Assembly: GCA_965207445.1 (NCBI GenBank)
Contig: CBDBLX010000002.1
Coordinates: 672,001-736,000, forward strand
Length of the DNA: 64,000 nucleotides
Source of the DNA: Nitrosopumilus sp.
Lineage (GTDB): Archaea; Thermoproteota; Nitrososphaeria; Nitrososphaerales; Nitrosopumilaceae
Reading direction: 5' to 3'
Shown: one piece after another, positions 3,159-60,010 of the stretch
Position numbering within the stretch: position 1 is the first letter of the stretch
Layout: every line of letters starts with the position of its first letter
Notes under the pieces: generated by a model
Seen by the model: the letters and a program-made list of their open reading frames with translations, nothing else
Databases searched by the model: none
What the model was told of the DNA's origin: nothing
Position numbers and translations under genes: made by a program

Positions 3159-3470
3159 AAACTATGTGATTTGTGCCCGATAATAAATCTACAGTACGTG
3201 ATCAGCATATTTGACATTTTATGATATCTTTGTGTTAATTGTGAGCAAGTTACACCTTATCTATGCATCCTGTCACCACAATACATGATTTAATTCACTG
3301 ACACACTTGACTAGTCATCCAGAGTGTCAATAAAACTCATTGAGAATAGATGTGAGTTGCCAACAGGTCGCCTTACTATGTCACTGCATCAGCATATGAA
3401 AAAAAGGGATCAGTACTAATGGTGGTTATACAAAAAACCCCCTTAAATTAACTGTCGGCTAGTCGGAATG

Positions 3471-3551
3471 GTAACCATTCAATCCATTCTCAAATTTAGG
3501 CACAGACTCGCCGCCTAACATCTGGTGCAAGTATGAGGGTTGAACGGTTAT
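3471..3551 (+). mobile_element. MITE family A copy (GTAA-ended, IS66-like ends)
   Basis: TIR GTAACCATTCAA...TTGAACGGTTAT; flanks GTCGGAATG/GTCAGAATG (8/9 TSD). Confidence 0.85.
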
Positions 3552-3672
3552 GTCAGAATGCTCACAACAACTCATCTAGTAAGTTGCATAGAACAATGAT
3601 ATGGTAGCATTCTATTGGTGTGTATTTTTTACATCTCAAGGATTAATTATGGTTGATGTTTGCTAACTACAT

Positions 3673-6960: not shown

Positions 6961-6964
6961 AATT

Positions 6965-7045
6965 GTAACCGTTCAACCTTTTCCCAAATTTAGGCACAAA
7001 TTCACCGCCTAACGTCTGGCGCAGGTACGGGGGTTGAACGGTTAC
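6965..7045 (+). mobile_element. MITE family A copy
   Basis: Perfect 14-bp TIR GTAACCGTTCAACC/GGTTGAACGGTTAC; no TSD visible. Confidence 0.88.
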
Positions 7046-7098
7046 GTACATATCCTCTATTATGATTGTATATTTGATTATAACTATTTTATTATAGT

Positions 7099-24892: not shown

Positions 24893-24942
24893 TCACATTG
24901 TTTGGTATATGGTTCTACTTTAATTGTATTGAGAATTGGCGG

Positions 24943-25024
24943 ATAACCATTCAACTTATTCCCAAATTTAGGCACAGACTCGCCGCCTAACATCTGGTGC
25001 AGACATCGGGGGTTGAACGGTTAC
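24943..25024 (+). mobile_element. MITE family A copy
   Basis: ATAACCATTCAACT...GGTTGAACGGTTAC with conserved core CCCAAATTTAGGCACAGACTCGCCGCCTAACATCTGG; no TSD visible. Confidence 0.85.
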
Positions 25025-25226
25025 TTTATTCTTTGGTGTATGATTGTGCATATTGCAACATACTGCCATAATTTTGAACATAAAAATAGTCATATTGTGA
25101 TCTCCTGTAACGTTTTCACAATTGGACTTTGCCACATGTGATTATTTCAGGCACGAAATCACAAAAATCCACTGTACAGAAACTTATGCTCGTTGCTATA
25201 TGTTGTCAATTAAATTAATGTCACAT

Positions 25227-41422: not shown

Positions 41423-41797
41423 ATGACATACATGCCACACTCCAATGTAAAGAATCGTGCAGATTTATCTACTACCATATCTAGAATGATCTTAATCACA
41501 AGAGGCAGAAAGACGGGAAAACCTCACAAAGTAGAGCTCACAGGCGTCACATACTCCGGTAAGGTATACTTTTCAAGACATAAACCAAATTCGGATTGGT
41601 ATCTTAATGCTACTGCAAATTCTGATGTGGCTGTACAGTTTGATAATCGTCTGATTGCTGGCACTGCACATGTGGTCTGTGATCCAAAATTATTGCAACA
41701 TATATCAGAGTTAAAATATCCTGGTGAGAAGCGGGCAAATGAAAAGAGAGTTGCAATAGAGGTGGAGTTAATTACATCTAGTGAGTTTAGAAATTAA
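41423..41797 (+). CDS. Deazaflavin(F420)-dependent nitroreductase-like split-barrel protein
   Basis: LITRGRKTGK, SDWYLNA..NSDV. Confidence 0.75.
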   Translation: MTYMPHSNVKNRADLSTTISRMILITRGRKTGKPHKVELTGVTYSGKVYFSRHKPNSDWYLNATANSDVAVQFDNRLIAGTAHVVCDPKLLQHISELKYPGEKRANEKRVAIEVELITSSEFRN

Positions 41798-41827
41798 TCT
41801 ATATTGTATCCTTACGTACTTACTAAC

Positions 41828-42060
41828 GGATCTTCTGCGTTAATCGTTGGTATCTTGCACGCTAATATCATTGCCGTTTGTGCAACATTAATGCGCTACG
41901 TATTATGGCCGTCGTTGCATGAATGCTCAAGACCCTTGGATTCACATGACAAGGTTGCAACCGTTCAGTTATGTATTATCAAAAGTTTATTCAACCACGT
42001 CATGAGTACCTACAGAACTTTACCAGATTTCCGTTACCACACGATTAATGCAAAATATCA
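41828..42060 (+). mobile_element. MITE family B, left copy
   Basis: Near-identical direct repeat of 43747-43977; imperfect TIRs. Confidence 0.88.
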
Positions 42061-42104
42061 GCCTACAGTCCTACTTTATATTCATTCACGTAACTCATAG
42101 AACA

Positions 42105-43157
42105 ATGTCACGTGTAAACTTGCCCGTCGCATTAGGCTTGGTTCTGAACAGATATTGTAACAGTAAAAAAACAGTCAAAATACAATGTATGATCTCAGTA
42201 GTCAGTTTTGACGTAAAAACAGAATTTGAGAAGCCAATATTGGGCTATCAAGTGAGAGTAAAACAGAGTACCGAGTTTGATGGATTCATAGATAATATTT
42301 GTGCGGTCTCACATAACGATGATGAGTTGGGAATGTTCCATTTGGTGCAACAGCAAGATGAGTTCTATCTAATTAGCAGCGAACGGGCAGGAGTATTCAG
42401 GTACATCATATTAAAAATTTTCAAATATCTTTATCCAAAAATTATATTTTCATTCATTCATTCGAGTTCCATGTGTCAAATTTTGTCAGACTTTGAGACA
42501 AAACACAATGTTGAGCTAATGAAAAAGAAATCCATTGAGAAACAACTGTTTGGAATCTCTCCAAGAACTGAAATTTCATACAAAACACAAAAAACAGGCA
42601 GAGAGTACCCAAAAGTAAAAGATACTTTTGAAGAAGCGCAAATGCAAGATTTATGGATTGAAAAAATACAAGTGTTCAGTAATGCCAATAAAAAAACACA
42701 ATTTACCATCTCCAGACGAGGAGAGGTATCTATTGAAAAAGGTACGTTTGATACTTTTTTCTCTACAATTCTTGCGCCAATTATTCAACAAAGTAAACAA
42801 AAACGTAAACAGTTTGAAAATAGGAGTAGGAGCGAACAATCAGATAAAAGACCCAAACCGCTGATTGTGCGATTTGGCAAAGATGTTTTTAAGACAACGA
42901 AAACCAGAAAAGATTTTTCTAAAATCTTGGGCAAATACACAAAATGTAATTATTCTATAATTCACAATGGAAATCCTCATGTGTATTTATCTGTCTTGGA
43001 TAGAATTGATAACTCTTCATTCTCAGTACGAACAATTGGGGATAGTTCTTTGTTGCTGATTCCACAGATTAAAACTTCTGCATTATCTTTGCTAAGATTT
43101 TCCGAATTTCTTGTTTCTTCATTTCATGAAGGAGACATTCAGAACTATGAAACCTAA
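42105..43157 (+). CDS. Uncharacterised 350-aa cargo protein
   Basis: Intact ORF; TATA-like TTTATAT ~25 nt upstream of ATG 42105; A-rich composition unlike neighbouring + strand genes. Confidence 0.8.
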   Translation: MSRVNLPVALGLVLNRYCNSKKTVKIQCMISVVSFDVKTEFEKPILGYQVRVKQSTEFDGFIDNICAVSHNDDELGMFHLVQQQDEFYLISSERAGVFRYIILKIFKYLYPKIIFSFIHSSSMCQILSDFETKHNVELMKKKSIEKQLFGISPRTEISYKTQKTGREYPKVKDTFEEAQMQDLWIEKIQVFSNANKKTQFTISRRGEVSIEKGTFDTFFSTILAPIIQQSKQKRKQFENRSRSEQSDKRPKPLIVRFGKDVFKTTKTRKDFSKILGKYTKCNYSIIHNGNPHVYLSVLDRIDNSSFSVRTIGDSSLLLIPQIKTSALSLLRFSEFLVSSFHEGDIQNYET

Positions 43158-43640
43158 AACTTCTGAACTAATTAAAGAATGCAGAGATGCAAAATAAAAT
43201 GAGTTTGATGCATACTATCAAACCGTAACCATATCTGTAGGTTTGAAACATTTGTTTGCAAGTTCATAACCATGTGTTTTCAAAGTTAATGAACTATCCA
43301 TGAAAACTAGTGACAACACAGTAACTCCAGATGCTATATTTCAATGCGATAATGATACTGTTGGAATCGTCTGTGAAATAAAAACGGCGCTACCCAATGA
43401 TGAAAAAATACTTTTTAAAGACATAGAAGAACAACTGGAAAAATATTCCAAAATAGAAACTCGCTGAAAAAGTCACAGACAAAGATTACGAATACAAAGT
43501 TAAATGGTCATCAAAAGCATCTAAAAATCGAAAAGAGTACTTGTTAGATAAATTATGTGGAAAAGAAAAGTCTCAAATTACTAGTGGAATACAAAAGAAA
43601 TTAACTGACTGATTTGAATCGGTTTTACTGGCCAAGTTAA
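43147..43640 (+). pseudogene. Decayed PD-(D/E)xK nuclease gene
   Basis: Frame from ATG 43147 reads ...TVTPDAIFQCDNDTVGIVCEIKTALP...EEQLEKY with in-frame stops at 43195, 43267, 43465; 3' end approximate. Confidence 0.7.
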
Positions 43641-43746
43641 TTCTTAAATCGAAATATGAAGAAATGAGATCAGTTCCGATTGTATTTATTTGGATTTAAT
43701 TTCTGTAAGAATTGGAAATTTTATATTATATTGTTCTGTGACTTCA

Positions 43747-43977
43747 GAATCTTCTGCGTTAATCGTTGGTATCTTGCACGCTAATATCATTGCCGTTTGT
43801 GTAACATCAATGCGCCACGTATTATGGCCGTCGTTGCATGAATGCTCAAGACTCTTGGATTCACATGACAAGGTTGCAACCGTTCAGTTACGTATTATCA
43901 AAAGTTTATTCAATCACGTCATGAGTACCCACAGCACTTTGCCAGATTTCCGTTACCAACATTAATGCAAAAGACCC
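43747..43977 (+). mobile_element. MITE family B, right copy
   Basis: Near-identical direct repeat of 41828-42060. Confidence 0.88.
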
Positions 43978-44023
43978 CTTACTAACGTAACATCTTTTAA
44001 TGCCGTATGAACATGTCAGTACA

Positions 44024-44155
44024 ATGAAAGCGAGATTTAGTAGTATATGCCCTGAATGCAATGATAAAATAAAGGCTGGAAGAGAGATCGTAAAAAACTC
44101 CAAAGATGTATGGGTTCACAAAGCATGTTCTGATATTGAAGACGAACTCCCTTGA
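44024..44155 (+). CDS. 43-aa zinc-ribbon-like small protein
   Basis: MKARFSSICPECNDKIKAGREIVKNSKDVWVHKACSDIEDELP*; CxxC...HxxC. Confidence 0.72.
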   Translation: MKARFSSICPECNDKIKAGREIVKNSKDVWVHKACSDIEDELP

Positions 44156-55954: not shown

Positions 55955-56026
55955 CTCTTGTAATATTTTTCTAATGTTTTGATACAATCCAAACATTACA
56001 ATAATTATTTTCTTTATATGATACAC

Positions 56027-56107
56027 GTAAAAGGTCAATTCTCGTGTCTGTTCTAGATGTTAGGCAATGAATCTGTGCCTAAATTTGGGAAGGGATTGAG
56101 CAGTTAC
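56027..56107 (-). mobile_element. MITE family A, degenerate copy
   Basis: Core AGATGTTAGGC...TGTGCCTAAATTTGGGAA; GTAA/TTAC ends; flanks ATGATACAC/ATGATATAC (8/9 TSD). Confidence 0.8.
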
Positions 56108-56195
56108 ATGATATACGTGTGCGTGTGTTGTGTGTGTGTTGTGATTATACATTTGATGTCATGTAACTTTTGATGAACTTTTACATGGAAAACTC

Positions 56196-59799: not shown

Positions 59800-59928
59800 T
59801 GTTGATTCTGATGATGATAAACGTATGTCTGTATTTATACGAGGCAGACGATCCTGGACACTACTTGAGCAAGTACTAAAATTTACAAACAACCAAATGA
59901 TCGACACAATCTCTAATATGTCGAATAA

Positions 59929-60010
59929 GTAACCGTTCAACCCCACGTACCTGCGCCAGATGTTAGGTGGTGAATTTGTGCCTAAATTTGGGAAGGAGTT
60001 GAACGGTTAC
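59929..60010 (-). mobile_element. MITE family A copy with perfect 9-bp TSD
   Basis: 13-bp TIR GTAACCGTTCAAC; GTCGAATAA at 59920-59928 and 60011-60019. Confidence 0.92.

Follow-up and report, generated by a model that had tools for sequence, protein, structure and literature searches.

A decaying cargo unit bounded by two IS6-like MITEs in the genome of an ammonia-oxidizing archaeon

Units in which two transposase-free repeats carry passenger genes are known from bacteria, and the closest described examples are the pair of 439-bp MITEs that flanks an integron in Acinetobacter and the IMU pair in Enterobacter (PMC3575428, PMC6382973, PMC10969869). In the accessible portions of these papers, both pairs require a transposase in trans, and the Acinetobacter MITE-integron-MITE structure has a target duplication (TSD) around the whole. 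The pseudo-compound transposons and translocatable units of the IS6/IS26 type have direct repeats around the passengers, an outer TSD and a transposase of the DDE_Tnp_IS240 type; in the available text of PMC7986276, such cargo units always involve direct repeats and arise via cointegration and recombination, their circles integrate at resident copies, and two MITEs of the family, of 227 and 336 bp, are listed. Typical IS6 elements are about 800 bp long, with a 14-bp IR with GG and G7 and an 8-bp TSD, while the long zinc-finger IS6-like elements of the ISCpe7 type and the archaeal "IS6" clades have an N-terminal zinc finger and longer IRs (PMC7986276, PMC6807381, as far as these texts were available). 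Among ammonia-oxidizing archaea (AOA), a putative composite around amoAB is described in the accessible text on the soil fosmid 19c08 (PMC3379541).

The unit described here is 2,150 bp long. A direct MITE pair brackets a two-gene cassette, and a 9-bp target duplication encloses the whole. It was found in a window of 64,000 nt (the whole stretch of DNA that was analysed) from a genome that carries archaeal amoA, in agreement with an earlier sequence-only reading of the window that had taken the host to be an ammonia-oxidizing archaeon. With the bacterial MITE and IMU pairs the unit has in common that cargo is flanked by two copies of a transposase-free element that would need a transposase in trans, and, with the Acinetobacter structure, the TSD around the whole. 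With the IS6/IS26 units it shares direct repeats around the passengers, an outer TSD and a DDE_Tnp_IS240-type transposase. Its parental element resembles the ISCpe7-type and archaeal elements in the N-terminal zinc finger and the longer IRs, and a composite-like organization in an AOA is shared with the fosmid structure. The unit is real and in decay, with MITEs of an IS6-like family as its bounds; units of this kind are known from bacteria, and in the papers searched we found none described in AOA.

Repeats, target duplication and junctions

The two MITE copies are 231-233 bp long, lie in direct orientation and bracket 1,686 bp (Table 1). They differ in 15 of 233 alignment columns, and the BLAST identity is 95% over 226 nt. 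Both copies of CTTACTAAC are flush with the outer MITE tips, and an exact 9-mer match at two fixed positions is expected by chance with a probability of about 6e-6; the 9-mer occurs twice in the window and 8 times in the genome. The inner flanks of the MITEs match neither each other nor the TSD, with one mismatch tolerated. A 10-bp TSD was rejected, since the first G of the family IR would then be lost. The sequence-only reading was thereby borne out on several points, namely the direct repeats of about 232 bp enclosing the cargo, the 9-mer outside both outer ends, the lack of a separate TSD for either copy, and the outer tips, which form an inverted pair as quoted. We conclude that a single event brought both outer ends into the target and left a TSD of the parental length.

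The structure was also compared to short-read contigs from four runs of one sample, which may be the source of the assembly. All four junctions, that is, those of each flank with its repeat and of the cargo with both repeats, were covered at similar depth in these contigs, none of which extended across the whole unit.

Table 1. Positions of the features of the unit and its flanks in the window, and of related elements in other genomes.
Feature	Position	Strand	Evidence or remark
Left flank host gene, F420H2-dependent quinone reductase-like, uninterrupted	41423..41797	+	PF04075
Left TSD copy, 9 bp, CTTACTAAC	41819..41827	+	21 bp past stop of F420-dependent reductase-like gene
MITE copy 1, 233 bp	41828..42060	- (strand of parent transposase)	85-87% identity to intact IS ends
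Outer IR of copy 1	41828..41855	+	26/28 vs resident IR; appears intact
Inner IR of copy 1	42032..42060	-	3 changes in terminal 5 nt and 1-nt insertion; likely dead
TATA-like box ahead of cargo gene 1	42075..42082	+	inferred from sequence
Cargo gene 1, intact, 350 aa, MJECL33/AF_0896-like, uncharacterised	42105..43157	+	homologues and atlas
Cargo gene 2, pseudogene	43147..43612	+	3 in-frame stops, frame change, about the middle half missing
MITE copy 2, 231 bp	43747..43977	-	repeat comparison with copy 1
Inner IR of copy 2	43747..43774	+	tip GA for GG (G2>A), rest same as copy 1
Outer IR of copy 2	43951..43977	-	tip intact; 3 substitutions and 1-nt deletion vs resident IR
Right TSD copy, 9 bp	43978..43986	+	same 9-mer as left
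Right flank host gene, 51-aa zinc-ribbon protein, uninterrupted	44000..44155	+	PF23545; kept in genus
Passenger-bearing IS6-like elements, three genus relatives	L068:305-3574, L069:163-3456, L073:968-3421		

The parental insertion sequence and the state of the MITE ends

Comparison of the repeat with the genome, which had been proposed as a way to find an autonomous partner, identified a resident 2.1-kb IS with nearly the same IR and the same TSD length. In the MITE, about 130 bp from the right end of this IS are joined to about 80 bp from the left end, with 84-87% identity between MITE positions 1-130 and 154-232 and the two IS ends. The repeats are thus non-autonomous IS derivatives, as had been suggested, and correspond to type I, IS-derived MITEs, being short, lacking a transposase and containing both ends of an autonomous IS. 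All four full-length copies of the parent (C2:620883-623023, 1719734-1721874, 2221232-2223324 and 2238823-2240915) have a 28-bp IR and an intact ORF of 579-595 aa with DDE motifs, and their TSDs are 8, 9, 9 and 9 bp long; an intact transposase gene is located at C2:2239038-2240777. Two of the four are identical, and the IS has therefore moved recently. One shortened form of the resident IS, 221 bp in length, lacks a TSD. Scans with IR motifs gave 0 matches in the genome contig collection and 0 in the viral contig collection, and one IR pattern found nothing in three genomes, in all of which looser patterns matched.

The parent transposase contains SWIM, zinc-ribbon and DDE_Tnp_IS240 domains, the last of which (PF13610) was matched with an E-value of 6.5e-14 and 52.7 bits against a cut-off of 27. 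Its best NCBIfam match is the IS6 model (E 2e-23), with a score of 83.1 bits that falls below the curated threshold of 125, and 14 of its best 15 plasmid matches, at 27-31% identity, are annotated as IS6 or IS6-like. There is also a weak match to a zinc domain of the IS1/IS1595 type (E 0.002); none of the solved structures matched the protein. With a length of 2.1 kb, a 28-bp IR with T at position 7 and a TSD of 8-9 bp, the parent departs from the strict IS6 traits (about 800 bp, 14-bp IR with GG and G7, 8-bp TSD), and we class it on its sequence as IS6-like.

GG tips and a 9-bp TSD are features of the IS903 group of the IS5 family, and it was to this group that the sequence-only reading had tied the repeats. 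A parent of the IS5 family or IS903 group was rejected, since the transposase has no IS5 or DDE_Tnp_1 match and is IS6-like by Pfam, NCBIfam and plasmid relatives; a DDE_Tnp_1 match does occur in another IS of the genome.

Relatives of the transposase at E <= 1e-20 were identified in 64 of 300 family genomes. A sister IS in the genome G054 has 51% protein identity to the parent transposase and an 8-bp TSD on seven of nine full copies; its tip is GA at 29 of 31 ends, and no TSD-bounded composite was found among the 31 ends. In the host genome itself, four intact ORFs encode a putative cognate transposase for the unit, which would be available in trans; the MITE end that is best preserved agrees with the resident IR in 26 of 28 positions. 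With an identity of only about 85% between the MITE ends and the resident IS, the true helper may instead have been a sister element.

This MITE subtype has only two copies in the assembly. A third copy with other flanks was present at about one quarter of the depth in the same sample (runs X2-X4, at window positions 41827-41937 and 43889-43960). This copy, which is absent from the assembly, may come from another strain or species, and in it the end that is dead in copy 1 has an intact tip.

The inner tips of both copies had been described as altered. For copy 1 this holds, and with its three tip changes and insertion the inner end of this copy is, as judged from its sequence, clearly dead. 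In copy 2 the only tip change is G2>A, and since GA tips are normal in the sister IS we do not count this end as dead. The outer end of copy 2 is also damaged, one base having been lost within the 28-bp IR. Only one inner end is thus clearly dead, and from the state of the four ends we regard the unit as old and probably no longer mobile.

Cargo, flanking genes and related units

The cargo has a GC content of 32.5% as compared to 39.6% for the contig, which places it in the lowest 2% of 1,475 windows; it is single-copy in the genome according to BLAST, and is likely foreign. The putative TATA-like box ahead of gene 1 was called from the archaeal consensus. Gene 1 has homologues among 30 other proteins (37-92% identity) and in 7 of 300 family genomes, and it matched no Pfam, NCBIfam or PADLOC family. 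The protein atlas assigned it with high confidence, and with a low recognition value, as MJECL33-like. Its predicted model has a pLDDT of 87, and the best fold match (Z 9.3, rmsd 5.9 over 180 residues) weakly suggests a fold like those of RdgC and Iml3/CENP-L. An intact homologue of gene 2 was placed in unnamed clusters and, likewise with high confidence, in the MJECL32 cluster of putative PD-(D/E)XK nucleases.

The two genes lie side by side in other AOA as well, and the names MJECL33 and MJECL32 are consecutive, which suggests that the cassette is an old mobile two-gene module. PADLOC models matched 0 families for gene 1, two gene 1 homologues and four gene 2 homologues, and in the literature we found no relevant paper that names MJECL33/MJECL32-like families. 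Judged from the sequences, the likeliest function would be that of a DNA-binding partner and a nuclease, perhaps defensive. At 20 loci with cargo homologues in 7 genomes, with flanks of up to 1.5 kb and, in one genome, across 14 kb, no match to the MITE or the transposase was detected. Comparison of the cargo protein with the genome contig collection gave 0 loci, and three short matches to metagenome contigs were rejected as spurious. The closest gene 1 homologues, P0002 and P0003, with 92% and 89% identity, are located on contigs of 2,287 and 1,752 bp, and the P0003 contig has about the length of the cargo plus two 31-base overlaps, a weak hint of shared repeat boundaries. The cargo homologue in G340 also has a truncated gene 2 and is immediately preceded by a tandem duplication of 396 bp (L060:5873-6654).

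The small ORF that had been noted to the right of the unit is present, with a length of 51 aa from the first ATG rather than 43. We searched for the flank genes in 40 relatives and 150 genus genomes, with 7 and 2 candidates scored per genome, respectively. The matches were distant, of the 64-85% type. Among the matches listed, there was no empty site, the MITE was not covered outside its own genome, and the flank genes were apart in the relatives where both could be placed; no close relative was found among these 40 and 150 genomes. The short-read contigs from the four runs of one sample, in which rare variants are lost, contained no empty-site joint, no solo-MITE allele and no circle. The source genome has 5.5% contamination, and no second copy of the whole unit was found in it. 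In G017, another IS6-like remnant with an 8-bp TSD (L062:4935-6032) is located 21 bp past the orthologous F420-reductase gene, and by its sequence it appears to be an independent insertion at the same spot.

The same IS also flanks a second unit of 6,056 bp at C2:1684068-1690123 (L002), with an 8-bp TSD. This unit contains an internally deleted IS copy, cargo, and a direct partial IS copy without an inner end; the cargo includes a gene pair with a RelE/ParE-like toxin, together with the remains of an IS from a different family, and the outer junction is present in the short-read contigs as a loose end. In both of the cargo units that this IS bounds here, the flanking copies are in direct orientation. 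At the outer tip of the second unit, 8 bp of the IR end are present in an additional copy, and the right partial copy begins at the same point as the internal deletion of the left copy. Within it, at C2:1685000-1685585, an inverted pair of an unrelated 110-bp MITE surrounds about 360 bp. This pair has a 4-bp duplication on its outer sides alone, and there is a paralogous site that is empty; 44 of the 61 full-length copies of this MITE have a 4-bp TSD of their own. Passenger ORFs also occur in IS6-like elements, 2.4-3.3 kb long and flanked by 8-bp TSDs, at three of 24 relative loci (Table 1). Further transposase-free cargo units, which the sequence-only reading had anticipated, are thus present in this genome, as exemplified by the 110-bp MITE pair, and together with the second IS unit and the passenger-bearing relatives this pair supports its general inference that such pairs act as gene-capture vehicles.

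Among the two-ended derivatives of the IS in the genome, five are not flanked by a separate TSD of 8-9 bp, and there are two orphan ends. A screen for local repeat pairs across the genome, 447 in all, was set aside, since its 91 matches against a null of 16-36 were swamped by tandem coding repeats and the second unit was missed. A long array of tandem repeats of about 255-770 bp, probably coding, spans C2:1483000-1499300. At C2:1828918-1834600 (L003), direct derivatives of the same IS, 715 and 221 bp long and without TSD, bracket methionine-synthase-like genes, and at C2:2232381-2234646 (L004) a derivative of the IS6-like element, 109 bp long, contains a nested element that we class by eye as IS66-like. 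In the window, a dispersed repeat of about 87 bp occurs in both orientations (3467-3553, 6961-7047, 24939-25025, 56025-56108 and 59927-60010) and probably represents another MITE family.

Routes of formation and comparison with known systems

The outer TSD and the decayed inner ends had been read as the signature of a composite transposon. The pattern is seen, with one clear dead end, but it is not diagnostic: an outer TSD with a dead inner end does not prove that the whole unit jumped, because cointegration and recombination of the IS6 type leave the same scar. We infer action in trans and an IS6-type "pseudo-compound" route, which we favour by a modest degree as the way in which the unit arrived. 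A borrowed transposase would act in trans on one MITE, and the cargo would come in as MITE copies recombine. In one order of events, a working MITE would join the target to a donor that carries the cargo, and the remainder would then be trimmed away by recombination with the other copy; in the other, a solo MITE would insert first and a circle of MITE and cargo would then recombine into it. In both orders, one inner end would never be needed and would be free to decay.

This pseudo-compound route is consistent with the derivation of the MITE from both ends of a 2.1-kb IS with an IS6-like transposase, with the direct orientation of both cargo units, and with inner ends of which one is dead and the other has the tip used by the sister IS. 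If copy 1 is a recombinant, its differences from copy 2 should lie towards the dead end. They do lean this way when all 15 are counted (p 0.015-0.04), but the lean is weak if the tip changes are counted as one event (p 0.09-0.22). The five derivatives without TSD and the two orphan ends are what replicative rearrangement would leave, but in an IS-rich genome TSDs are also lost by ordinary deletion. Against the route, the parent departs from strict IS6 (83 vs 125 bits, no G at IR position 7, TSD often 9 bp), archaeal and long "IS6" elements may lie outside the family according to the accessible text of PMC6807381, which found no experimental data on them, and the IS26 transposase was seemingly cis-acting in one assay (PMC7986276, available part). 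The cargo is single-copy, the short-read contigs from the four runs of the one sample contain no solo MITE, empty allele or circle, and the MITE ends have the limited identity to the resident IS mentioned above. Intact outer tips with a dead inner end fit transposition by the outer ends equally well.

Such transposition is the main alternative, a classical composite in which a transposase in trans pairs the two outer ends and moves MITE, cargo and MITE as one piece, and we give it an appreciable, though lesser, probability. The TSD lies outside only, GG is present at both outer tips, the damaging tip changes relative to the resident IR are on the inner ends, and in a post hoc comparison the copies differ at 4 of 10 tip positions and at 11 of the 223 other positions (p about 0.001). 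The right copy of the second unit has no inner end at all. IS1 composites move as units, and the variation of the TSD length between 8 and 9 bp and the weak IS1/IS1595-type match (E 0.002) point the same way, as does the bacterial IMU pair, which moved whole in trans according to the available text of PMC3575428. However, the studied members of IS6, to which the parent is nearest, shift their cargo by way of cointegrates. In copy 2, the GA tip of the inner end is usual in the sister IS and the outer end has a deletion, and the unit was not found a second time in the genome with a different TSD. It is very improbable that separate MITE insertions around resident DNA later lost their own TSDs and that the outer 9-mers match by chance. 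The genome is rich in IS ends without TSDs, and the flank genes are apart in relatives where both were placed, but the exact 9-bp match is of the parental length and lies at the exact IR tips, the cargo is low in GC and restricted to few family genomes, and both copies share bases that are absent from the third copy in the sample. An assembly artefact is the least probable explanation by far: contamination and the lack of a short-read contig across the whole unit speak for it, but the four junctions have even depth and the copies differ at 15 places.

If the interpretation is extended, an undescribed family of long IS6-like elements with SWIM and zinc-ribbon domains might drive IS26-style cargo shuffling by MITE-sized ends in IS-rich AOA, spreading toxin-antitoxin and defence-like cassettes between strains, with this locus, the 6-kb unit and the passenger elements in three relatives as stages of one gene-capture pathway. 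We offer this as a tentative and rather doubtful proposal; if true, the pathway would give a first handle on how archaeal "IS6" elements move. The unit points to a route by which AOA may gain and move small cassettes that is invisible to transposase-based IS annotation. The intact transposase, the MITE and the two cargo units form a matched set for testing the movement of archaeal IS6-like elements, for which PMC6807381, in its available text, found no experimental data. We consider the impact moderate, because the concept is established in bacteria, the unit is decaying and half of its cargo is broken.

In the literature on AOA and archaea that was covered, which leaves aside most subscription papers and the 2007 archaeal IS review, we found no MITE-pair cargo unit, and an earlier archaeal example may exist. 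According to term counts, the words MITE and compound are absent from the main text, as available, of the thaumarchaeal mobile-DNA survey PMC6563490, the word MITE from the available text of PMC5797428, and the word composite from that of the 2026 archaeal IS survey PMC13343696. The parent IS may be listed in the IS supplement tables of PMC6563490 or PMC13343696.

The putative composite on fosmid 19c08 has two full IS copies of another, unassigned family, with no outer TSD mentioned in the accessible part of PMC3379541. The ISCpe7-type elements are the closest annotated plasmid relatives of the parent transposase (27-31% identity), and the parent differs from them by an extra SWIM domain and a low-complexity linker, and by its score below the IS6 model cut-off. 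In contrast to the IS6/IS26 units, both flanking copies are non-autonomous here, and the parent is 2.1 kb long, encodes SWIM and zinc-ribbon domains, and has an IR of 28 bp and TSDs of 8-9 bp. As compared to the Acinetobacter and Enterobacter pairs in the accessible descriptions, the flanking copies are about 6% diverged rather than identical, the cargo is an uncharacterised two-gene cassette, half broken and with no integron, and the host is an archaeon with an intact IS6-like parent in the same genome.
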